Numbered from the stretch's first letter, positions 3,510 through 32,822 are shown. The stretch: 64,000 nucleotides of DNA from Escherichia coli (GCF_045037415.1 NZ_CP173438.1); one strand, 5' to 3'. A program made the numbers and translations. The notes: a model not told the origin generated them from the letters alone.

Positions 3510-4463
3510 ATGATCGAAGTAAAACACCTGAAAACGCTACAAGCGTTGCGGAACTGCGGCTCACTCGCAGCCGCTGCGGCGACGTTGCATCAAACGCAAT
3601 CCGCCCTGTCTCACCAGTTTAGCGATCTGGAACAACGCCTTGGCTTCCGGCTATTTGTGCGTAAAAGCCAGCCGCTTCGCTTTACACCGCAGGGAGAAAT
3701 CCTGTTGCAACTGGCAAATCAGGTGCTGCCGCAAATTAGCCAGGCACTGCAAGCCTGCAATGAACCGCAGCAGACGCGCCTGCGCATTGCCATAGAGTGC
3801 CATAGCTGTATTCAGTGGCTGACGCCCGCATTAGAAAATTTCCATAAGAACTGGCCGCAGGTGGAGATGGATTTTAAATCGGGCGTAACGTTTGATCCGC
3901 AGCCTGCGTTGCAACAGGGCGAGCTGGATCTGGTGATGACGTCCGATATTCTGCCGCGCAGTGGCCTGCATTATTCGCCGATGTTCGACTATGAAGTACG
4001 TCTGGTGTTAGCACCTGACCATCCACTGGCGGCAAAAACGCGTATTACACCGGAAGATCTCGCCAGCGAAACGCTGTTGATTTATCCGGTGCAGCGTAGC
4101 CGACTGGATGTCTGGCGGCATTTTCTTCAGCCAGCAGGCGTCAGCCCGTCACTGAAAAGCGTCGATAACACCTTATTGTTGATTCAGATGGTTGCCGCAC
4201 GGATGGGTATTGCCGCACTACCTCATTGGGTGGTGGAGAGTTTTGAACGCCAGGGTCTGGTGGTCACCAAAACCCTGGGCGAAGGCTTGTGGAGCCGACT
4301 GTACGCCGCCGTGCGCGATGGCGAGCAGCGTCAGCCGATTACAGAAGCGTTTATTCGTTCAGCGCGCAATCACGCCTGCGATCATCTGCCGTTTGTGAAG
4401 AGCGCGGAGCGACCCACTTACGATGCACCCACAGTGAGGCCAGGATCACCAGCGCGCCTGTAA
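3510..4463 (+). CDS. metR: LysR-family regulator of methionine biosynthesis
   Basis: 317-aa ORF; N-terminal HTH ([41 protein letters not shown]); divergent from metE. Confidence 0.95.
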
Positions 4464-5250
4464 TAAACGTTGGCCAGTGCGGCTGTTGGTGCCAGATAGC
4501 CAGGTTTACCAGCAGCCCTGCCGGAACGTGCATATTATTCATAATGCCCAGCGTTCCGGCGTCCACCTGCGTCGCGCCGTAGTTCCACATAAAGTAGCCA
4601 ATCCCGGAAGCCACCACGCCAAGAAACACCAGAATGCCCCATTGCAACGTGGTTTGCGGCATTTTCTGCGCATTTCCCAGCAAGAACCATGCAATCACTG
4701 CCACCAGGAACGCGCCAAGATAGAACCACGCAAAGGCGTTATGCTGCGGCATCGGGCGAGTTTCCATCAGACGTTTGTAACCCACCATGCCGATGGCAAA
4801 AGTGATATTGGAGAGTTGCACCAGCAACAAGCCAGTCCAGAAATGGTCGGTGACCTGATCATAGCGAATAATCCCGGCACCAATCACCGCCAACAAGGCG
4901 CTAAAAGCATAGCCCCAGCGCAGACGGCGCTTACTCATGATGTCATAAATCAGCGTGATGTAGAGCGGCGTCAGTACGGTGAACAACAGCAGTTCAGAAA
5001 CCGTCAGGTAGAGATAGGCGCGGAAACTCAGCATATACATCACACCGAGCTGCATCGCGCCCACCAGCATATACAGGCCGACCGTTTTCAGGCTATTGCC
5101 ACGGGTACGCAGAAACGGCAGAAAAACAAGTGCCGCCAGACCAACGCGCACCAGCACCGCAAAATAGCTATCGACGTGCCCCGCAAGGTACTCGCCATAA
5201 AAGCTAAAGGAGAAGGCCCACAGAATCGTGGTGATGATAAGTAGCGCCAC
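4351..5250 (-). CDS. yigM: EamA/DMT-family inner membrane transporter (biotin transporter YigM/BioP)
   Basis: 299-aa polytopic membrane ORF; position between metR and yigL as in E. coli; 3' end overlaps the metR 3' end by 113 bp. Confidence 0.85.
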
Positions 5251-5325
5251 AATGGAAAACTCTTTGATTAACGAGTATCCATTGTAGCGAAGTATCAGGT
5301 TGACAACTGACCAAATAAAGAACGA

Positions 5326-6126
5326 TTACGATAAATAGAGCTTACGCAGATAATGCGGCACTGCGTCTTCGGCGTTAGTACCAATCACTTCCAGCTCTGG
5401 ATGCAGATCTTTCAGCCGTTGATGCGCGCTGCCCATAATGCAGCCTTTCCCCGCCATCGACAGCATTTCGGCATCGTTCATTCCATCGCCAAAGGCAATA
5501 CAATCTTGCAGGCTGTAACCCAGTTTCTTCGCTACCGCTTCCAGGGCATGGCCTTTTGAAACGCCGCCAGCCATGACTTCCAGGCAGGTTAAGGTAGAGA
5601 AACTGACATTGACGCGATCGCCCCAGCGAGCGTTAATCGCTTGCTCCAGTGGCAGAAGTTTTTCATGGGAATCGCAGGTGAAGAACACTTTGCTGACGCC
5701 TTCCGGCTCCAGCAATCCCGGCTCATACAGCGCATAATTGAACACCGCTTCTTTGAAAAAGCGCATCTCTTCCGGGCGATGGCGATTCATAAACCATTCG
5801 TCGTCGCGATAAACGTTAGTAATGATGTCCGGATTGTCGTTGACTACGCCAAACAGATCGCTGGCAATGTCGCGATCCAGGTTATGAGCAAAAATCAGGT
5901 TGCCATCCAGATCGTGAACGCGCGCGCCATTGGAGGTAATCATGTAAGACTTAATCTCCAGATTATCGCGAATTTGCCCCACATCAACGTGGTGACGACC
6001 GGTCGCAAACACAAAGTTGATGCCGCGCGCGGTGAGCAGCTTCAGAGTTTCTTTGGCGTAAGGGGATAACGTATGGTCGGGAGAAAGTAACGTGCCATCT
6101 AAATCAGACGCAACAACCTGGTACAT
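5326..6126 (-). CDS. yigL: Cof-type HAD sugar phosphatase
   Basis: ORF 5326..6252; conserved start taken at MYQVVASDLDGTLL (HAD motif I DxDGT), giving 266 aa. Confidence 0.9.
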   Translation of the reverse strand: MYQVVASDLDGTLLSPDHTLSPYAKETLKLLTARGINFVFATGRHHVDVGQIRDNLEIKSYMITSNGARVHDLDGNLIFAHNLDRDIASDLFGVVNDNPDIITNVYRDDEWFMNRHRPEEMRFFKEAVFNYALYEPGLLEPEGVSKVFFTCDSHEKLLPLEQAINARWGDRVNVSFSTLTCLEVMAGGVSKGHALEAVAKKLGYSLQDCIAFGDGMNDAEMLSMAGKGCIMGSAHQRLKDLHPELEVIGTNAEDAVPHYLRKLYLS

Positions 6127-8045: not shown

Positions 8046-8906
8046 ATGACGGAAGCAACGACACCACATGACGCAATCTTTAAGGCTTTTTTATCCCGAC
8101 CAGAAACGGCCCGTGACTTTATTGAAATTCATCTGCCGCCTTCTTTAGTTAAACTCTGCAATCTTGATACGCTCCATCTCGAGTCCAGCAGTTTTGTAGA
8201 GGAAAACCTACGCCAGTATTACAACGACGTACTTTATTCAGTAGAGACGACGAAAGGGTGCGGATATATCTATGTGTTGATTGAGCATCAAAGTTCACCT
8301 GATGAAAATATGGCGTTCCGTATGCTTCGCTATGCTATTGCCACCATGCAGCGGCATCTTGAAGCGGGACATGATTATCTGCCTCTGGTGATCCCCATTC
8401 TTTTTTACCAGGGAAAGCGTAGCCCATATCCATGGTCAACAAACTGGCTCGATGGTTTTCCGGATCCGGACATTGCACGCGATCTCTATTTTCATGCTTT
8501 TCCGCTGGTTGATATTACGCTAATTCCTGATGACGAAATCATGCAACACCGCAGCATGGCCGCCTTTACGCTGGTACAGAAGCATATCCGTCAACGGGAT
8601 ATGACAACGCTGTTAGATAAGTTATCCCGCTTAATGATTCTGGGGCAGATGAGCGGACAGCAAATACGCATGTTGATAAACTACATGGCGCTGGTAGGTG
8701 AAGCACAGGATGTACGAACATTAGTACATGGTCTGGCACAACGAGTGCCTCAACAAGGAGAGGAACTGATGACTTTAGCGGAAGAACTTCGGCGCGATGC
8801 CCTTCTCAATGTCGCAAAAGCCATGCTACAGCGTGGCTTTGATTTGCAGTTGATTATGGAAATGACCGGGCTTTCTCAGGAAGACCTTTATCAATTGCAA
8901 TCCTGA
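8046..8906 (+). CDS. Rpn/YhgA-like PD-(D/E)XK recombination-promoting nuclease family protein
   Basis: 286-aa ORF; N-terminal pattern TPHDAIFKAFL..ETARDFIEIHLP...LHLESSSFVEE...YNDVLYSV...YVLIEHQSS is what I recognise from E. coli RpnA-E (Transposase_31 family). Recalled, not searched. Confidence 0.75.
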   Translation: MTEATTPHDAIFKAFLSRPETARDFIEIHLPPSLVKLCNLDTLHLESSSFVEENLRQYYNDVLYSVETTKGCGYIYVLIEHQSSPDENMAFRMLRYAIATMQRHLEAGHDYLPLVIPILFYQGKRSPYPWSTNWLDGFPDPDIARDLYFHAFPLVDITLIPDDEIMQHRSMAAFTLVQKHIRQRDMTTLLDKLSRLMILGQMSGQQIRMLINYMALVGEAQDVRTLVHGLAQRVPQQGEELMTLAEELRRDALLNVAKAMLQRGFDLQLIMEMTGLSQEDLYQLQS

Positions 8907-11582: not shown

Positions 11583-12452
11583 TCAAAACAGGTCGTTTAG
11601 CATAACTCCCACACCAACGCGGGTCTGGTTGAAGTTATAGTCGATGAGCGATTCGCCGTAACCGCTGTAAACCTGAGTATAAAGGCGCACATGTTTGGTG
11701 ATCGGGTAGCTTAAGCCTAACTCCGCGCCGCCGTAACCGGTGTTCCAGTTGTACTGCCCTTTCGCGCTCAGTACCGCATCACCGAGGTGATAGCCGATTT
11801 TAAGCTGGTAGTAACCCATATATTTGGTGATGTCCGGGTTATCGTCCGTATTCCCCACCACATACCACGGCTTCACCTCTACCAACCAGTTACCGTTTTC
11901 TGCCATCAGGCGGGTATAAAGGCGGTTCCAGCTGCGGGAAGTCGGGTCTGAACGCCCGTTTGAGTCGTGGTTGTAGCCCATTTCCACATCGCGCAGCGTC
12001 CAGCCAGCAAAGTTGTAATCCGTGGCAAAACCGAGGAACAATTGCGGTTCGTAGTTAGTTTCACGAAACGGTGATGACTCATCGCTATTAGAAAGCTGCC
12101 ACCAGGATTTCTGTGTGTAGGAGGCGCCCAGTACAGAGTTTGGCCCCAAAATCCCACGCCACAGCGGAAACGCCAGGCTCAACTGGAACTTTACTTCATC
12201 CTTACGCGCGTTTTCCGCCCAGTCGTAACTGGCAATCGCTTCTTTATTCAGATCGCTGGTTTGGGTGTAGATGATGTAGTTGGTGTCATAAGGATAAAGG
12301 GTGAACGGATTGTCATGCTCCTGCAGCATATTGGCGATAATACTGCCACGCACCGCTGGCGCGTCATGCACCTCTTTCACCGTTGCCTCTTGTGCATATA
12401 CTGCCATAGGCAACATAAACACCGGCAACAACCAGCCCTGCAGAGTCCGCAT
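11583..12452 (-). CDS. pldA: Outer-membrane phospholipase A
   Basis: 289-aa ORF with signal peptide and C-terminal beta-barrel ending ...VGVGVMLNDLF. Confidence 0.95.
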   Translation of the reverse strand: MRTLQGWLLPVFMLPMAVYAQEATVKEVHDAPAVRGSIIANMLQEHDNPFTLYPYDTNYIIYTQTSDLNKEAIASYDWAENARKDEVKFQLSLAFPLWRGILGPNSVLGASYTQKSWWQLSNSDESSPFRETNYEPQLFLGFATDYNFAGWTLRDVEMGYNHDSNGRSDPTSRSWNRLYTRLMAENGNWLVEVKPWYVVGNTDDNPDITKYMGYYQLKIGYHLGDAVLSAKGQYNWNTGYGGAELGLSYPITKHVRLYTQVYSGYGESLIDYNFNQTRVGVGVMLNDLF

Positions 12453-12616
12453 CGCTCGTGTTCTCCGTAACGAATTATTGATAAGGTGAATATTTTTCTG
12501 CGGGCTATTTTACATACTTAACTCCATAGCCGTTAGTTATCCCTTCCTAAAGTAGAAACCAACAATAAATAAGCATAAAATCAACATTTCATTAACTAAT
12601 GAAGTGTAAGGATGTT

Positions 12617-13084
12617 ATGTCTGCCGTACTGACCGCTGAACAAGCCCTCAAATTAGTGGGTGAGATGTTTGTTTATCACATGCCATTTAACCGCGCATTG
12701 GGGATGGAACTGGAGCGTTACGAAAAAGAGTTCGCACAGCTGGCCTTTAAAAATCAGCCGATGATGGTGGGCAACTGGGCGCAAAGCATTTTACACGGCG
12801 GGGTCATTGCGTCGGCGCTGGATGTCGCCGCAGGTCTGGTGTGCGTGGGAAGTACCTTAACCCGCCACGAAACCATCAGTGAAGATGAACTACGCCAGCG
12901 GCTATCGCGGATGGGGACCATTGATCTTCGCGTCGATTATCTGCGCCCAGGCAGAGGAGAGCGTTTTACTGCTACCAGTAGCCTGTTGCGTGCAGGCAAT
13001 AAAGTCGCCGTCGCCCGCGTTGAATTACACAATGAAGAACAGCTTTATATTGCCAGTGCCACCGCCACCTATATGGTAGGTTGA
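12617..13084 (+). CDS. yigI: PaaI/YigI-family hotdog-fold thioesterase
   Basis: ORF 12599..13084; start taken at [12 protein letters not shown], giving 155 aa. Confidence 0.8.
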
Positions 13085-13135
13085 AGACATAAAAGCAGGT
13101 AAACTGCTGTTACCAATTAAAAATGAGTATTCCCG

Positions 13136-14026
13136 ATGGATGCAAAACAAACGCGGCAGGGCGTATTACTCGCTCTTGCCGCTTATTTTATTTGGGGTAT
13201 TGCGCCAGCGTACTTCAAACTGATTTACTACGTGCCCGCCGATGAGATCCTGACGCATCGCGTGATCTGGTCGTTTTTCTTTATGGTGGTGCTGATGAGC
13301 ATTTGCCGCCAGTGGTCCTATTTAAAAACGCTGATTCAGACGCCACAGAAAATTTTTATGCTGGCAGTCTCTGCCGTGCTGATTGGTGGCAACTGGCTAC
13401 TGTTTATCTGGGCGGTGAACAATCACCATATGCTGGAAGCGAGCCTTGGTTACTTTATTAACCCACTGGTGAACATTGTGCTGGGGATGATTTTCCTCGG
13501 CGAGCGATTCCGCCGGATGCAATGGCTGGCGGTGATTCTGGCGATTTGTGGCGTGTTGGTTCAGTTGTGGACTTTTGGTTCACTGCCGATCATCGCGCTG
13601 GGGCTGGCGTTTAGTTTTGCTTTCTACGGCCTGGTGCGCAAGAAGATTGCTGTTGAAGCGCAAACCGGCATGTTAATCGAAACTATGTGGTTGCTGCCCG
13701 TGGCGGCGATTTACCTGTTTGCTATTGCCGACAGCTCAACCAGTCATATGGGGCAAAACCCGATGTCGCTGAATTTACTGCTGATCGCCGCCGGTATTGT
13801 CACCACCGTGCCACTGTTGTGTTTTACTGCAGCTGCGACACGCCTGCGTCTCTCAACGTTAGGCTTTTTCCAGTACATTGGTCCGACGCTGATGTTCCTG
13901 CTGGCTGTGACGTTTTATGGTGAAAAACCGGGTGCCGATAAGATGGTGACTTTCGCCTTTATTTGGGTGGCGCTGGCAATTTTTGTGATGGATGCGATTT
14001 ATACGCAGCGTAGAATTTCCAAATAA
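13136..14026 (+). CDS. rarD: EamA/RarD-family permease
   Basis: 296-aa polytopic membrane ORF; N-terminus MDAKQTRQGVLLALAAYFIWGIAP. Confidence 0.9.
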   Translation: MDAKQTRQGVLLALAAYFIWGIAPAYFKLIYYVPADEILTHRVIWSFFFMVVLMSICRQWSYLKTLIQTPQKIFMLAVSAVLIGGNWLLFIWAVNNHHMLEASLGYFINPLVNIVLGMIFLGERFRRMQWLAVILAICGVLVQLWTFGSLPIIALGLAFSFAFYGLVRKKIAVEAQTGMLIETMWLLPVAAIYLFAIADSSTSHMGQNPMSLNLLLIAAGIVTTVPLLCFTAAATRLRLSTLGFFQYIGPTLMFLLAVTFYGEKPGADKMVTFAFIWVALAIFVMDAIYTQRRISK

Positions 14027-14120
14027 AAAATAAATATATTCTGAAAAAATATGCCTGCTCTTGCATAAGAGCGGGAATATTGCCATGCTAACGAAATTCT
14101 TACACAAGGATGTAAAATTA

Positions 14121-14501
14121 ATGTTGCGTATATTTATTCCAACATCTAAAGGCAGAATTTCCAGACGCCGCTATATATTTTCATTTATTTTTACAAATCT
14201 AATTTGTATCTTACTTATTTCTTTTTTTTCCAATGCCGGGGCTGGTTTCTTTGTTATAACATCTACCATTCTTTTACATTATCTCGTTATCAACATGAAT
14301 TGCCAACGACTCCGGGATAGTGGTTTTACTTATATAAAAACTTATATTTTTAGTACATTAGTAGTCTATATCATTTCTTTCATCATCATGGTTGCTGAGC
14401 ATTTTGACTGTTCTGGCAATGGTTCGATGATTTTTTTGATTTGTTATTTTTCCACCTTTGGCATGTTAGTTCTTGCCCCCACTGATTCCCCCCGTAAATA
14501 A
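14121..14501 (+). CDS. yigG: DUF805-family inner membrane protein
   Basis: ORF 14061..14501; RISRRRY motif near the N-terminus is typical of DUF805. Start chosen at MLRIF to give 126 aa. Sits in a low-GC block. Confidence 0.65.
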
Positions 14502-14515
14502 TTAATGGAGATTTT

Positions 14516-14896
14516 ATGAGTAAGGATTATATGGCAGATGGCTCATTAACTGAAAAGTGGAAGTACCGCTTTTCGTTTTATGATGAACATGGCTTCCCTG
14601 GATTTTGGGGTGCAAGCCCAGAATATAAACAAGCATTAAAAGGATTAAACACAAGGCAAAAGATAATAATTAGAACAAATGTTATTGCTTTTTTCTTCTC
14701 GTGGGTCTATTTATTTGTATTGGGTTTATGGAAGAAGGCTATTGTTGTTCTATTCCTGGCGATATTTTCTTTAATTTTTGGTTACATGATTGGCTATAAT
14801 GTATTTGGATTCATTATCGCCGCTTATGTTTCATACAATACCAACAGATGGTTCTATGAAAAAGAAGTAAAAGGTATTCATACCTGGAGCCTTTAA
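14516..14896 (+). CDS. yigF: DUF2628-like inner membrane protein
   Basis: 126-aa ORF with two TM segments; 14 bp after yigG; low GC. Confidence 0.65.
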   Translation: MSKDYMADGSLTEKWKYRFSFYDEHGFPGFWGASPEYKQALKGLNTRQKIIIRTNVIAFFFSWVYLFVLGLWKKAIVVLFLAIFSLIFGYMIGYNVFGFIIAAYVSYNTNRWFYEKEVKGIHTWSL

Positions 14897-14902
14897 ATAA
14901 TC

Positions 14903-14940
14903 GGTGGCTTAGCCAGGCTAAGCCACCGTTCTCGTTTTTT
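14903..14940 (+). terminator. Rho-independent terminator after yigF (T-run overlaps the corA stop codon)
   Basis: Inverted repeat GGTGGCTTAGCC/GGCTAAGCCACC at 14903-14927, followed by GTTCTCGTTTTTT. Confidence 0.6.
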
Positions 14941-15904
14941 ACAGCCAGTTCTTCCGCTTAAAGTACAGATACGGTGCCAGGCCCGCGAGGATCATAAAGA
15001 TAATCGCGCCTGGGTAGCCGAAGCTCCACTTCAGTTCCGGCATAAACTCAAAGTTCATCCCGTAGCTGGAAGCGACCAGCGTCGGTGGCAGGAACACCAC
15101 GGATACCACCGAGAAGATTTTGATGATGCGGTTCTGCTCGATATTGATAAAGCCCATCGCCGCCTGCATCAGGAAGTTCACCTTCTGGAACAGGGATTCG
15201 TTATGCGGCAGCAGGGATTCGATATCTCGCAGGATTTCACGCGCCTGCTCCAGTTGCCCACCCGGTAAGCGTGCTTTACGTACCAGGAAGTTGAGCGCGC
15301 GCTGGGTATCCATCAGACACAGGCGAACTTTCCAGCCGATATCTTCCAGTTCCGCCAGCGTGGAGAGCGCCTCGTCGTACTCATCGCCCTGATGCCCTTC
15401 CATAATTACCCGGCTCAACTGCTCCAGGTCGCTGTAGATATTTTCAATTTCATCTGCCAACTGTTCGATTTTGGTTTCGAACAGATCCAGCAGCAGCTCG
15501 TAGGCGTTACCGTCCACCATTGACTGGCTACGGGCACGCATACGATACAGACGAAAAGCGGGCAGTTCACGCTCACGCAGAGTAAACAGACGACCATCAC
15601 GGATGGTAAATGCCACAGTGGAGTTACCGGCGTGATCTTCCGCATCTTCAAAGAAGAAGAAGGAGTGAATATGCAGGCCGTCATCGTCTTCAAAGAAACG
15701 TGCCGATGCTTCGATGTCTTCCAGTTCCGGGCGGGTTGCCAGGCTCTGGCCAAGTTCAGATTGTACGCGCAGTCGCTCGTCGTCGTCCGGTTCGACAAGA
15801 TCAATCCATACTGCATTTACAAGGGGTTGTGACTCTTCGACTTCCAGCCGGGTCAGTCGGTTATTTTCCAGTTGAAATGCGCTCAGCATGACCGGGACTC
15901 CCAA
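14939..15904 (-). CDS. corA: Mg2+/Co2+ transporter CorA
   Basis: 321-aa ORF ending in two TM helices with the GMN signature ([11 protein letters not shown]). Confidence 0.95.
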
Positions 15905-16258
15905 TGCTTAAAATATCGGACAGTTCGGTGGGCACACAGAAACAAATTGGGTTTCAGACCATTAAACAGCCTGACTCAGCGCGACGGGAAAAATTGAGGT
16001 CGCTGACAACCGCTAAGGCTATCAGCAAAAAGGGATAGCCTTAGGAGTTGATCCTGGATGACAGGATAGTGAGCCAGTATCTACTGGGTGTGTCCAAGGC
16101 GAATGTCCTCTTAGAGTGATCGTGCGCGCATGTTACGCCAGCAAAATTTTGCCGTCAACACGCAACAGAACACCACAGAACAATAGTTGAACTTCGCGCT
16201 TTTTGGTACTCGTCAAGGTCGCTAACAGGATAAAAAAATCCCACATTCAGGGCCTATA
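15905..16258 (-). promoter_or_regulatory. corA promoter and long 5' leader region
   Basis: 354-bp untranslated region upstream of corA. In enterobacteria corA carries a long regulatory leader; elements not mapped here. Confidence 0.4.
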
Positions 16259-17023
16259 ATGGCGCATCGGCTATTCATTGGTAAAGGAATGATCACCTTG
16301 AATCTCAAACGGATTTTTCTCACCCTCACCTTACTTCCCTTGTTTGCTGTTGCCGCTGATGATTGCGCACCCTCAGATCCGACGCTGACCGTACAGGCGT
16401 ATACCGTTAATCCTCAAACAGAGCGGGTGAAAATGTACTGGCAAAAAGCCAATGGCGAAGCGTGGGGAACGTTACATGCGCTGCTGGCGGATATTAATAG
16501 TCAGGGTCAGGTGCAGATGGCGATGAACGGCGGCATCTATGATGAAAGCTATGCGCCGCTCGGTTTGTACATCGAAAACGGTCAGCAGAAGGTGGCGTTA
16601 AATCTCGCTTCAGGTGAAGGGAATTTCTTTATTCGCCCTGGCGGCGTGTTTTATGTCGCGGGAGATAAAGTCGGCATCGTTCGTCTGGATGCCTTTAAAA
16701 CCAGTAAAGAGATTCAGTTTGCGGTGCAGTCAGGGCCATTGTTGATGGAAAACGGTGTAATTAATCCGCGTATTCATCCCAACGTCGCCTCACGTAAAAT
16801 TCGTAACGGTGTTGGGATTAATAAACATGGGAACGCCGTGTTTTTGCTGAGCCAGCAGGCGACAAATTTTTATGATTTTGCCTGTTATGCCAAAGCGAAA
16901 CTGAACGTTGAGCAGCTGCTTTATCTTGATGGCACAATTTCACATATGTATATGAAAGGCGAGGCAATCCCGTGGCAACGCTATCCTTTTGTCACCATGA
17001 TTTCCGTCGAGCAGAAAGGTTAA
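16259..17023 (+). CDS. yigE: DUF2233-family exported protein
   Basis: 254-aa ORF. The first ATG overlaps a TATAAT-like hexamer; a second ATG at 16289 has an AAAGGA RBS and begins a signal peptide (MITLNLKRIFLTLTLLPLFAVAA), so the true start may be 16289. Confidence 0.75.
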   Translation: MAHRLFIGKGMITLNLKRIFLTLTLLPLFAVAADDCAPSDPTLTVQAYTVNPQTERVKMYWQKANGEAWGTLHALLADINSQGQVQMAMNGGIYDESYAPLGLYIENGQQKVALNLASGEGNFFIRPGGVFYVAGDKVGIVRLDAFKTSKEIQFAVQSGPLLMENGVINPRIHPNVASRKIRNGVGINKHGNAVFLLSQQATNFYDFACYAKAKLNVEQLLYLDGTISHMYMKGEAIPWQRYPFVTMISVEQKG

Positions 17024-17105: not shown

Positions 17106-18008
17106 ATGAAAAAAACGCTCGCAACATTATTTTTATTAACCTGTCTGGGGTCATCATCCGCTTATGCGGATAACGCTTTGATTTTACAAACGGATTTTAG
17201 CCTGAAAGATGGTGCCGTCTCGGCGATGAAAGGGGTCGCATTCGGTGTTGACCATAATCTTAAAATCTTTGATTTAACACACGAAATTCCACCGTATAAC
17301 ATCTGGGAAGGCGCTTATCGCCTGTATCAGACTGCCAGTTACTGGCCGCAAGGTTCGGTGTTTGTTAGCGTGGTCGATCCAGGTGTTGGTACAGACCGTA
17401 AATCGGTAGTGCTGAAAACCAAAAACGGTCAGTACTTCGTTTCACCAGATAACGGTACGCTCACGTTGGTGGCGGAATCGCTGGGTATTGAGAGCGTCCG
17501 GCAAATCGATGAAAAAACCAACCGTCTGAAAGGTTCCGAAAAGTCATATACCTTCCATGGTCGTGATGTATATGCCTACACCGGTGCGCGTCTGGCTTCC
17601 GGGGCGATCACGTTCGAGCAGGTGGGGCCAGAGCTTCCTGCAAAAGTTGTCGAACTTTCTTATCAGAAAGCCAAAGCAACAAAAGGTGAAGTGAAGGGCA
17701 ATATCCCGATTCTCGATATTCAGTACGGCAACGTCTGGAGCAATATCAGCGACGAGTTGCTGAATCAGGCAGGAATCAAACTCAACGACACGTTGTGTGT
17801 GACCATTTCCGAAGGTTCCCAGCAAAAATACGCAGGGAAAATGCCGTATGTCGCAAGCTTCGGCGATGTGCCGGAAGGCCAGCCGATGGTGTATCTGAAC
17901 AGCTTATTGAATGTTTCCGTGGCGCTGAATATGGATAATTTCGCGCAGAAACATCAGGTTGCGTCTGGTGCTGACTGGAATATTGATGTGAAGAAGTGCG
18001 CTAAGTAA
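17106..18008 (+). CDS. DUF62 / SAM hydroxide adenosyltransferase-like protein with N-terminal signal peptide
   Basis: 300-aa ORF; MKKTLATLFLLTCLGSSSAYA signal peptide (AXA site); then LQTDFSLKDGAVSAMKGV...DLTHEIPPY...VVDPGVGT...VSPDNGTLTL, the conserved N-domain pattern of DUF62. Starts 82 bp after yigE with a GAAGGGAAA RBS. Confidence 0.7.
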   Translation: MKKTLATLFLLTCLGSSSAYADNALILQTDFSLKDGAVSAMKGVAFGVDHNLKIFDLTHEIPPYNIWEGAYRLYQTASYWPQGSVFVSVVDPGVGTDRKSVVLKTKNGQYFVSPDNGTLTLVAESLGIESVRQIDEKTNRLKGSEKSYTFHGRDVYAYTGARLASGAITFEQVGPELPAKVVELSYQKAKATKGEVKGNIPILDIQYGNVWSNISDELLNQAGIKLNDTLCVTISEGSQQKYAGKMPYVASFGDVPEGQPMVYLNSLLNVSVALNMDNFAQKHQVASGADWNIDVKKCAK

Positions 18009-31593: not shown

Positions 31594-32193
31594 ATGTCAA
31601 ACATGCGCACACCGTCCCGCTATATTTTCCGCTTACCATCACATGAAATTAATCCTTTTCGGGCAACGCTCTTGCTGATTTTGTTGATATGTGCCGTTCT
31701 GGCTGGCGTAAGTTGGCTGATTCTGTCCTTCGTACGTACAGGCAATACATTCATCTTCTGGTTAACACTTTTTATTGGGTATCTGATAGCCATTGCGAAG
31801 CAGGAAAAAATCAAGCTCATCGAGAAGCGCCAGATTATGGCTGATAAACGTCAGGGACTTTCCATTTGTCAGTTCGCACGCCAATTTTCCCCCCACACCG
31901 TAGATACATGGGTGATTCGGGCTGTGTGGAATACCTTACAAGGAAACGGCTATATCGATTATCCATTACCACTGAAAGCCAGTGATAAACTGGACGATGA
32001 TCTGGATTTAGTAAACGATGCAGACGAGTTAGAAGAGCTGGTCGAAGATATTGCCGCTCGTTGTGGGCGCGATCTACGCGGAATAGAAGATAATCCGTTT
32101 CTTCCCATCACCACGGTAGGTTCTCTTGTAAGTGTATTAAACGCACAACCGATGACCCAAGAGCGACGTAGCCTGTTGTTTACTCGGTCATAA
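31594..32193 (+). CDS. Hypothetical two-TM membrane protein with acidic C-terminal domain
   Basis: 199-aa ORF in a 640-bp region between hemY and the GlmZ 3' end; AAGGA 9 nt upstream of the second ATG (31603); two hydrophobic helices then DDDLDLVNDADELEELVED. No family recognised. Confidence 0.45.
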   Translation: MSNMRTPSRYIFRLPSHEINPFRATLLLILLICAVLAGVSWLILSFVRTGNTFIFWLTLFIGYLIAIAKQEKIKLIEKRQIMADKRQGLSICQFARQFSPHTVDTWVIRAVWNTLQGNGYIDYPLPLKASDKLDDDLDLVNDADELEELVEDIAARCGRDLRGIEDNPFLPITTVGSLVSVLNAQPMTQERRSLLFTRS

Positions 32194-32398
32194 AAAAACG
32201 CCTGCTCTTATTACGGAGCAGGCGTTAAAACAGGTCTGTATGACAACAAGTGGGTGCTTCACTCAACGTTGTGTCCATGGTGTCTGATGAGGCAGAAGCG
32301 ACATCTGTCAGTGGACGATAAGCACCGTAAACGGCTCTGCGTCATTCCGGAGTTTATGAGGCACTAAGGCGAACATAAGAGATGGAATGAGCATCTAC
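32193..32398 (-). ncRNA. glmZ: GlmZ small regulatory RNA (activator of glmS translation)
   Basis: Minus-strand sequence from 32398 reads GTAGATGCTCATTCCATCTCTTATGTTCGCCTTAGTGCCTCATAAACTCCGGAATGAC and ends with hairpin AACGCCTGCTC-CGTAATAAGA-GCAGGCGTT plus TTTTTTT; matches my memory of E. coli GlmZ, located between hemY and aslA. Confidence 0.85.
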
Positions 32399-32822
32399 TC
32401 GTTTATTATGCCACAGAGAACCGGGAAATAACATCCCTTAACACTTGTTATGAGATAATTCTGTAATCCTCTTTGCTTCCTGAGTAATAACTTCCTGAGT
32501 GAATATTTCTCCTGCGCACAATTCTACACATATATATAATGAATAATAAAAGTCATTCAATTAATAACATATATATTAATTGCAGATAAAACTAAAAACA
32601 GCATCAATAATCAACGCGATATAACATCACCGCCTTACATATCACCTGCGCCAGAGGTAGGATTGAAAACGCTCTCCTGATTTTCCAATTCATTTTCTGG
32701 ATAAATAAATAATTTATTTTTATCACCATTATTTATGCAATCATCCTGTCAGGGAGAGGGATCTCAATTATCAATGCTTAATTACGTCATCATTTTGACG
32801 ACATGAAACCGGAGCATTTTGC

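Follow-up and report, generated by a model that had tools for sequence, protein, structure and literature searches.

The two small genes yigG and yigF, which lie between rarD and corA at 14030-14900 of a 64-kb stretch of Escherichia coli DNA (NZ_CP173438.1; hereafter the window), very likely constitute an AT-rich, swap-prone cassette for a pair of membrane proteins, present here as an allele of the Escherichia albertii type that was recently recombined in and is probably silenced by H-NS. The yigG-yigF locus of K-12 was already known to be AT-rich, foreign-looking and H-NS-bound. Two aspects are new: the slot between rarD and corA is polymorphic, its other occupant being a colicin-M-like effector-immunity pair, and the copy in the window appears to be a recent import from E. 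albertii.

Composition and divergence of the block

The GC content of the block was 0.331, compared with 0.5225 for the whole window. This was the lowest value of all 871-bp windows (mean 0.523, standard deviation 0.037, z = -5.2), the next lowest being 0.40. Calculated in 50-nt steps, the GC content dropped at 14000, at the rarD stop codon, and returned at 14900, at the corA stop codon. The GC content at third codon positions (GC3) was 0.31 for yigG (z = -5.1) and 0.34 for yigF (z = -4.5), against 0.588±0.054 for the 50 other open reading frames (ORFs) of the window. The codon adaptation index (CAI), for which the window's own genes served as the reference set, was 0.51 for yigG (z = -3.5) and 0.52 for yigF (z = -3.2), against 0.674±0.048; both values were below that of every one of the 50 other ORFs. 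Homopolymers of A or T of at least 6 nt occurred at 4.6 per kb in the block and at 0.97 per kb elsewhere. Tracts of at least 10 nt composed of A and T only were enriched 21-fold (11.5 against 0.54 per kb), and 10 of the 44 such tracts of the window were located inside the block. The first-pass annotation, made by inspection of the sequence, had described the block as roughly one-third GC against about half elsewhere, with long oligo-A and oligo-T runs. The sliding-window GC and CAI values bear this out: both were outliers, and neither GC content nor codon usage resembled that of the flanking genes.

The same annotation had named the two genes yigG and yigF and had placed them between rarD and corA. 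The location was found to be correct; the genes themselves are not those of K-12 but a deeply divergent allele. In comparison with K-12 the segment 14022-14921 was 64-86% identical, with sharp edges, and its flanks were 93-100% identical; the block shared 78% of its bases with K-12. Identity was 80% in nucleotides and 76% in amino acids for yigG, with a synonymous divergence (dS) of 0.70, and 74% and 70%, with a dS of 1.25, for yigF. For rarD, corA and yigI, dS to K-12 was 0.08-0.17. On these identities a locus identical to that of K-12 was rejected.

The window and K-12 loci (the latter known as promoter island 4000528_663 and as a small extended protein occupancy domain, EPOD) have in common the slot, the gene order, the 126-aa protein lengths and the 14-nt gene spacing, as well as the AT richness, a shared terminator and a conserved AT-tract region corresponding to an intragenic promoter. 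They differ in that the window allele is of the E. albertii type, and the H-NS, EPOD and promoter data refer to the K-12 allele only.

The tract shared with Escherichia albertii

Between 13979 and 14974 the window was 99.3% identical to E. albertii (GCA_027567535.1, used for all per-region identities), compared with 87-94% in the flanks. Only 7 mismatches were found within this tract; mismatches were dense up to 13978 and again from 14975. Identity was 99.5% for yigG, 99.0% for yigF and 98.9-100% for the two small intergenic pieces of the slot, against 87.2% for pldA, 91.0% for yigI, 91.6% for rarD, 94.0% for corA and 90.8% for yigE. The dS to E. albertii was 0.024-0.027 for the cassette and 0.29-0.79 for the flanks. 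When the comparison was made with a B2 E. coli strain carrying the other cassette, the flanks were almost identical right up to the tract. Near-identity to E. albertii inside the tract, together with diverged flanks, shows that homologous recombination between species has recently replaced the allele at this site. In the simplest reading, this copy is a recent import of about 1 kb whose breakpoints fall within the final 48 nt of rarD and the final 36 nt of corA, through which the E. albertii-type allele would have entered the E. coli lineage of the window, including strains labelled ST131 (sequence type 131).

The block had been proposed to be an old horizontally acquired insertion. Compared with most Enterobacteriaceae it has indeed been inserted, since 57 of the 77 species examined have an empty slot; the great age does not hold for this copy, given the identities above and a dS of 0.025. 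A single ancient insertion, inherited vertically ever since and with a low GC content that reflects old, un-ameliorated foreign DNA, is very unlikely. The cassette does occupy the same slot in E. coli, E. albertii, E. marmotae, E. whittamii and one further Escherichia species and is therefore old in the genus, and two composition-based methods have classed the K-12 allele as foreign (PMC3661553). However, vertical inheritance is at odds with a tract so much closer to E. albertii than its flanks are. Furthermore, K-12 YigF shared more residues with the Superficieibacter protein (82%) than with that of the window (70%), the E. whittamii cassette has a mosaic structure, and in half of E. coli the cassette has been replaced. 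Contamination of the E. albertii assemblies with E. coli DNA was excluded by their albertii-like flanks.

Even less probable is divergence in place, by which an AT-rich region silenced by H-NS would have mutated fast under relaxed constraint, with no exchange between species. The dS of the cassette between the window and K-12 (0.7-1.25) was 5-10 times that of the flanks, and YigG diverges faster than YigF between genera, both of which would fit. Fast evolution, however, cannot yield near-identity with another species. The dN/dS ratio (nonsynonymous to synonymous divergence) relative to K-12 was 0.20 for yigG and 0.15 for yigF, which indicates purifying selection on both genes, that is, constraint and not relaxation; and the edges of the divergent segment coincide with the recombination breakpoints in rarD and corA.

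For the interspecies replacement, transfer from E. albertii to E. coli is the most likely direction. It is favoured because the B2 relatives of ST131 (Nissle, 536 and 82.0311) carry the other cassette, DUF3289/DUF943, between flanks almost identical to those of the window, because E. albertii has several distinct variants of both proteins against one dominant E. coli sequence, and because the yigF allele of the window is an outlier: it was 73-74% identical to the other Escherichia alleles, themselves 87-97% identical to one another, and is placed as their outgroup, as E. albertii is in the genus. The allele was also present in three independent E. albertii-type assemblies. All four observations run counter to the reverse transfer, from an ST131-like E. 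coli lineage to E. albertii, which is unlikely. It can be said for the reverse transfer that sequence identity carries no direction, and that the exact E. coli proteins were found on at least 1000 contigs, though this number reflects sampling. The direction from E. albertii is favoured, not proven.

The rarD-corA slot, its cargo and its surroundings

RarD loci were taken from 80 species; in 77 of them, all Enterobacteriaceae, both rarD and corA were readable and the slot could be measured. The 57 empty slots, with a rarD-corA gap of 37-174 bp, include those of Citrobacter, Enterobacter, Klebsiella, Kluyvera, Lelliottia and Buttiauxella. The first-pass annotation had suggested a synteny comparison with Salmonella and Klebsiella; Klebsiella has the empty slot, and Salmonella arizonae and diarizonae carry DUF3289/DUF943. 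The yigG-yigF pair was found in Escherichia species, Superficieibacter, Intestinirhabdus and Pseudescherichia. Other cargo consisted of a His-box desaturase-like gene (six loci), a gene for an EEP-like secreted protein (Raoultella and Enterobacter sp. JUb54), a BrnT/BrnA-like pair (Siccibacter), and low-GC DNA for a 432-aa membrane protein together with a 132-aa ORF (Superficieibacter sp. 1612_C1). Salmonella serovars differ in the presence and the allele of yigG-yigF. The rarD-corA junction is a small replacement hot spot spanning several genera, a slot where two convergent core genes meet at their 3' ends and which has taken in unrelated cargo repeatedly. A search of the literature for any named hot spot at rarD-corA brought up nothing relevant.

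In a set of 5426 complete genomes of E. coli, three states of the slot were counted. The window allele (at least 99% identity) was present in 555 (about 10%), some of them labelled O25b:H4-ST131, a K-12-type allele (about 78% identical to that of the window) in about 2400, and the DUF3289/DUF943 cassette (at least 80% coverage) in 2628. The two proteins have been demonstrated to act as a colicin-M-like toxin (DUF3289) and the matching immunity protein (DUF943), and they are proposed to be a type VI secretion system (T6SS) effector pair (PMC11148199). The DUF3289 protein of the alternative cassette is of the 'YPO3983 family'. Like yigG-yigF, this cassette occupies exactly the rarD-corA slot, consists of two genes, has a low GC content (0.39-0.40 in Salmonella) and shows the same exchange through flank homology. 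Unlike YigG and YigF, its products are a 282-aa toxin acting in the periplasm and a 160-aa immunity protein, unrelated to them and with demonstrated activities; this cassette is not in the window.

Strains with DUF3289/DUF943 keep, after rarD, the yigG upstream region with a 38-nt deletion in which the start codon is lost, and then about 55 nt of yigG codons, a remnant indicating that the toxin cassette replaced yigG-yigF in E. coli. Both cassettes were found in tandem in E. coli 1218KP and Enterobacter sp. E76, separated by duplicated corA 3' ends (and, in E76, duplicated rarD 3' ends as well), scars of the kind that exchange by way of flank homology should leave. The two cassettes alternate at this site in Escherichia, Salmonella and Enterobacter, and the yigG-yigF cassette, of about 0.9 kb, very likely moves by homologous recombination in the flanking core genes.

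No mobility gene was found in the block, which contains two ORFs only, and no terminal or flanking repeats: the repeat search returned AT-rich chance matches and the terminator hairpin. Membership in a mobile element (insertion sequence (IS), transposon or integrative islet) was rejected in view of the lack of a mobility gene, inverted repeats and att sites, and a prophage or IS remnant was likewise considered and rejected. DNA and protein searches of plasmids and phages yielded no genuine copies; the matches were chromosomes mislabelled as plasmids or tiny unannotated records.

The block has the deviant composition and codon usage, the absence at the orthologous site of relatives and the phylogeny discordant with the core genome that characterize islets. 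It resembles the H-NS-silenced AT-rich islets, or 'promoter islands', of E. coli in these first two respects, and also in its dense A/T tracts, of the kind that create spurious promoters, and, presumably, in silence under standard conditions (PMC3661553; PMC7229825). It is unlike typical xenogeneic islets in being only 0.9 kb long and devoid of mobility genes, and in forming an allelic series exchanged by homologous recombination instead of a one-off acquisition.

Three strains showed further events at the slot. E. coli cM2a has an IS1A there, and a deletion takes out the 3' end of rarD together with yigG and most of yigF; E. coli SCAID WND1-2022 has an IS1 inserted within a window-type cassette. 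Evidently strains can do without the cassette. In Escherichia whittamii an orphan DUF943 gene (contig positions 7867-8364), with no DUF3289 toxin gene, lies 3' of an intact yigG-yigF pair.

Table 1. Features of the rarD-corA region of the window.
Feature	Coordinates	Strand	Basis or extent
rarD, EamA-family transporter gene, left core flank	13136..14026	+	ORF; Pfam EamA match; annotation of identical ST131 DNA
Recombination tract common with E. albertii	13979..14974	.	Last 48 nt of rarD, whole slot, last 36 nt of corA
AT-rich region 5' of yigG	14027..14120	+	Sequence; terminator scan
yigG-like gene, 126-aa inner-membrane protein with 4 predicted transmembrane helices, distantly DUF805-like	14121..14501	+	ORF; PGAP annotation of identical DNA; NCBIfam
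Putative counterpart of the K-12 intragenic yigG promoter	14329..14362	+	AT tract and GTACATTAG conserved; activity presumed
yigF-like gene, 126-aa DUF2628 membrane protein	14516..14896	+	ORF; Pfam DUF2628
Bidirectional terminator hairpin, common to convergent yigF and corA	14902..14928	.	Stem and tails on both strands
corA, Mg2+/Co2+ channel gene, right core flank	14939..15889	-	ORF; annotation

The features of the region are listed in Table 1. The rarD gene was 96.2% identical to that of K-12. The CorA protein did not differ between K-12, ST131 and strains that carry the other cassette. For the yigG-like gene, alternative upstream start codons are present at 14085 (ATG) and 14061 (TTG), and the yigF-like gene starts 14 nt past the stop codon of yigG. 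No terminator-like site was found by the terminator scan between rarD and yigG. The strong hairpin after yigF has a perfect stem of 12-13 bp with 8 G-C pairs, a T-rich tail on the plus strand and ATTATTT on the minus strand. A simple scan for promoter consensus sequences gave 3 sites against 4.5 expected, that is, no enrichment, and a search of 12500-16500 against Rfam gave no match at E<=0.1.

Within pldA, identity to K-12 fell to 88-90% over about 300 nt (11922-12221), against 94-100% around it, which suggests a recombinant or mosaic patch. The corA-yigE intergenic region (15890-16258), with the 18-aa ysgD/corL leader ORF, was 97.6-99.5% identical across Escherichia, against 88-98% for the adjacent coding genes; conservation above that of neighbouring coding genes fits a conserved regulatory leader. 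Between yigE and uvrD, a gene for a 300-aa protein of the S-adenosylmethionine (SAM) hydrolase/SAM-dependent halogenase family (17106-18008, plus strand) is present in the window, ST131 and other strains and absent from K-12 EMG2 and 1218KP, where yigE is directly followed by uvrD. It adds a second presence/absence polymorphism some 2 kb away from the yigG-yigF slot. A 199-aa hypothetical ORF between hemY and aslA (31594-32193, plus strand; WP_001260226.1 in ST131) has a GC content of 0.457 and the lowest GC3 and window-based CAI among the 50 comparison ORFs; the 871-bp window second lowest in GC, at 31951-32821, overlaps it. Between rhtC and rhtB lies a gene for an Rpn-family recombination-promoting nuclease/putative transposase (8046-8906, plus strand; GC3 0.458).

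The YigG-YigF pair, its regulation and possible roles

The RISRRRY motif noticed in the first protein was located at residues 12-18 of YigG. Read as a 146-aa protein, the ORF scored 224.3 bits against the YigG equivalog model NF008474/PRK11371 (cut-off 217), a score barely above the cut-off, as fits a divergent allele. The DUF805 resemblance that had been proposed for it was confirmed as a resemblance, with a score of 22.1 bits (E 2e-4) for the 126-aa protein; certified membership was not, the gathering threshold of DUF805 (PF05656) being 25.7. Among nine members of the YigG family, four reached E<0.01 against DUF805 and none passed the gathering threshold. No match to YigG was found among sequence profiles of the Protein Data Bank (PDB).

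DUF805 proteins are characterized by an N-terminal basic R-x-x-R-R-x-Y signature and an R-L-(H/R)-D-x-G loop after the second transmembrane helix. YigG shares with DUF805 inner-membrane proteins of the E. coli YhaH/YhaI type the layout of four transmembrane helices, and its N-terminal R-x-S-R-R-x-Y and its R-L-R-D-S-G loop after the second helix may correspond to this signature. The loop is part of CQRLRDSG (residues 61-68), which is invariant within the YigG family. One source labels the exact YigG sequence 'YhaH (DUF805 family)'. The YigG family is very small, an exhaustive profile search having recovered 27 members out of 1.84 billion representatives; unlike those of generic DUF805 proteins, its genes always have a DUF2628 gene directly after them. 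AlphaFold2 (AF2) placed the helices of YigG at residues 15-38, 42-67, 72-92 and 100-118, with a predicted local distance difference test score (pLDDT) of about 90.

The second protein, which the first-pass annotation had called DUF2628-like, matched DUF2628 (PF10947) at residues 17-117 with 41.0 bits (E 2.7e-10), well above the gathering threshold of 23. Among the PDB sequence profiles YigF had one marginal match, to SemiSWEET (E 0.03), which was disregarded. Wherever the context could be read, in five enterobacterial genera and three distant metagenomic lineages, a DUF2628 gene directly followed the YigG-like gene; the partner genes of the distant YigG-like proteins matched DUF2628 at 44-55 bits. 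One of the distant metagenomic pairs has another neighbourhood (LacI, then an enolase-superfamily gene) and a 4-nt gene overlap. The pair is thus kept, at 40-50% identity, across genera and in other contexts. The cassette would encode two small inner-membrane proteins that form an obligate pair, transcribed together and probably coupled in translation.

A borderline YigG/DUF805-like protein was also encoded on a contig assembled from SRR26015881 (Logan; positions 3773-5671), in a plasmid-like context with genes for Hha, an H-NS-family protein, Pmp3, topoisomerase III and ParA. The gene next to it is a 90-aa ORF without a family match, not DUF2628.

The two proteins were predicted by AF2 to fold with confidence (pLDDT 80-93). 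When they were joined by a linker, in both gene orders, pLDDT was 79-81 and the predicted template modelling score (pTM) 0.65, above the ceiling of about 0.45 that we calculated for two independently placed domains of 126 residues, which suggests a heteromer. YigG-like protein and YigF most likely form one heteromeric membrane complex. Some points weigh against this complex. Linker-fused transmembrane helices tend to be packed together in such predictions, and the AF2 fusions came without predicted aligned error (PAE) or a negative control. The DUF2628 homologs of Pseudomonas (36-45% identity) are solitary, with no YigG partner. As to an activity, no structural or family match gave a hint: no solved or viral structure resembled YigG or YigF, and none was found in the viral-protein structure library BFVD. 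The proteins of both alleles had no match in PADLOC-DB at E<=1, and none in PHROGs.

That the ORFs are non-functional, being chance reading frames in an AT-rich spacer, is hardly credible. The K-12 locus is indeed silent in standard conditions (PMC8282354), and the IS1 insertions and deletions described above are tolerated in some strains. Both frames, however, are intact at 126 aa across alleles that are 74-80% identical, under the purifying selection described above; the pair is conserved between genera, its predicted folds are confident, and deletion has phenotypes in Salmonella.

In K-12, yigG-yigF is one of 78 'promoter islands' and was bound by H-NS in all the chromatin immunoprecipitation (ChIP) data sets considered (PMC3661553). 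It appears as a small silenced EPOD (PMC8282354), and within yigG lies a promoter that requires an AT tract and is repressed by H-NS (PMC7229825). The AT tract and the -10-like sequence of this promoter are conserved in the window allele. The H-NS binding suggested by the first-pass annotation is thus borne out by published ChIP data for the K-12 allele; for the window allele it is deduced from composition and from the conserved AT tract. An allele as AT-rich as that of K-12, with the AT tract conserved, can reasonably be expected to be silenced by H-NS, and the window allele is most probably coated and silenced. A search with the 10-bp H-NS motif TCGATAAATT, allowing up to 2 mismatches, was uninformative: it gave 63 matches against 57 expected, only 2 of them in the block.

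The only experimental phenotype found in the literature was that of Salmonella ΔyigG; papers on DUF805 and DUF2628 contained no functional data. Chlorine stress regulates yigG in Salmonella, and the deletion mutant attaches less well to polystyrene, spinach and tomato (PMC3579871). Tentatively, YigG and YigF may be the subunits of a heteromeric complex in the inner membrane that is expressed conditionally and changes properties of the envelope or surface. This guess is suggested by the obligate pairing, purifying selection, predicted co-folding and membrane location, and is in line with the Salmonella ΔyigG phenotypes.

The pair could alternatively serve in interbacterial competition or self-protection, for instance as a membrane toxin with its immunity protein or as an orphan immunity pair. 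The slot invites this idea: its alternative occupant is a validated toxin-immunity pair (PMC11148199), yigG-yigF is accompanied by an orphan DUF943 gene in E. whittamii and by both DUF3289 and DUF943 in Enterobacter sp. E76 and E. coli 1218KP, a BrnT/BrnA-like pair holds the same position in Siccibacter, and deep alleles are kept under purifying selection. Yet no match to a toxin, immunity or defence family was obtained (PADLOC, PHROGs and Pfam), neither protein contains a toxin domain, and no T6SS, VgrG or PAAR gene is adjacent, nor any T6SS gene in the neighbourhood. Since the slot also holds metabolic-looking cargo (desaturase-like and EEP-like), co-location may mean only that the site is permissive. 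We consider such a role improbable, and equally so its specific form, an undescribed two-subunit module of the inner membrane that might, for instance, protect against an effector aimed at the membrane or itself permeabilise membranes under certain conditions. If it were true, the divergent exchanged alleles would be kept by frequency-dependent selection, and the pair would trade places with a colicin-M-like pair at a 'competition slot'.

The strict pairing of YigG-like and DUF2628 proteins offers a concrete handle on the function of two domains of unknown function. The divergence of the window allele illustrates that gene names derived from K-12 can hide 25-30% protein divergence. The locus represents a clean and datable case of interspecies recombination replacing an accessory cassette within an otherwise syntenic core region.

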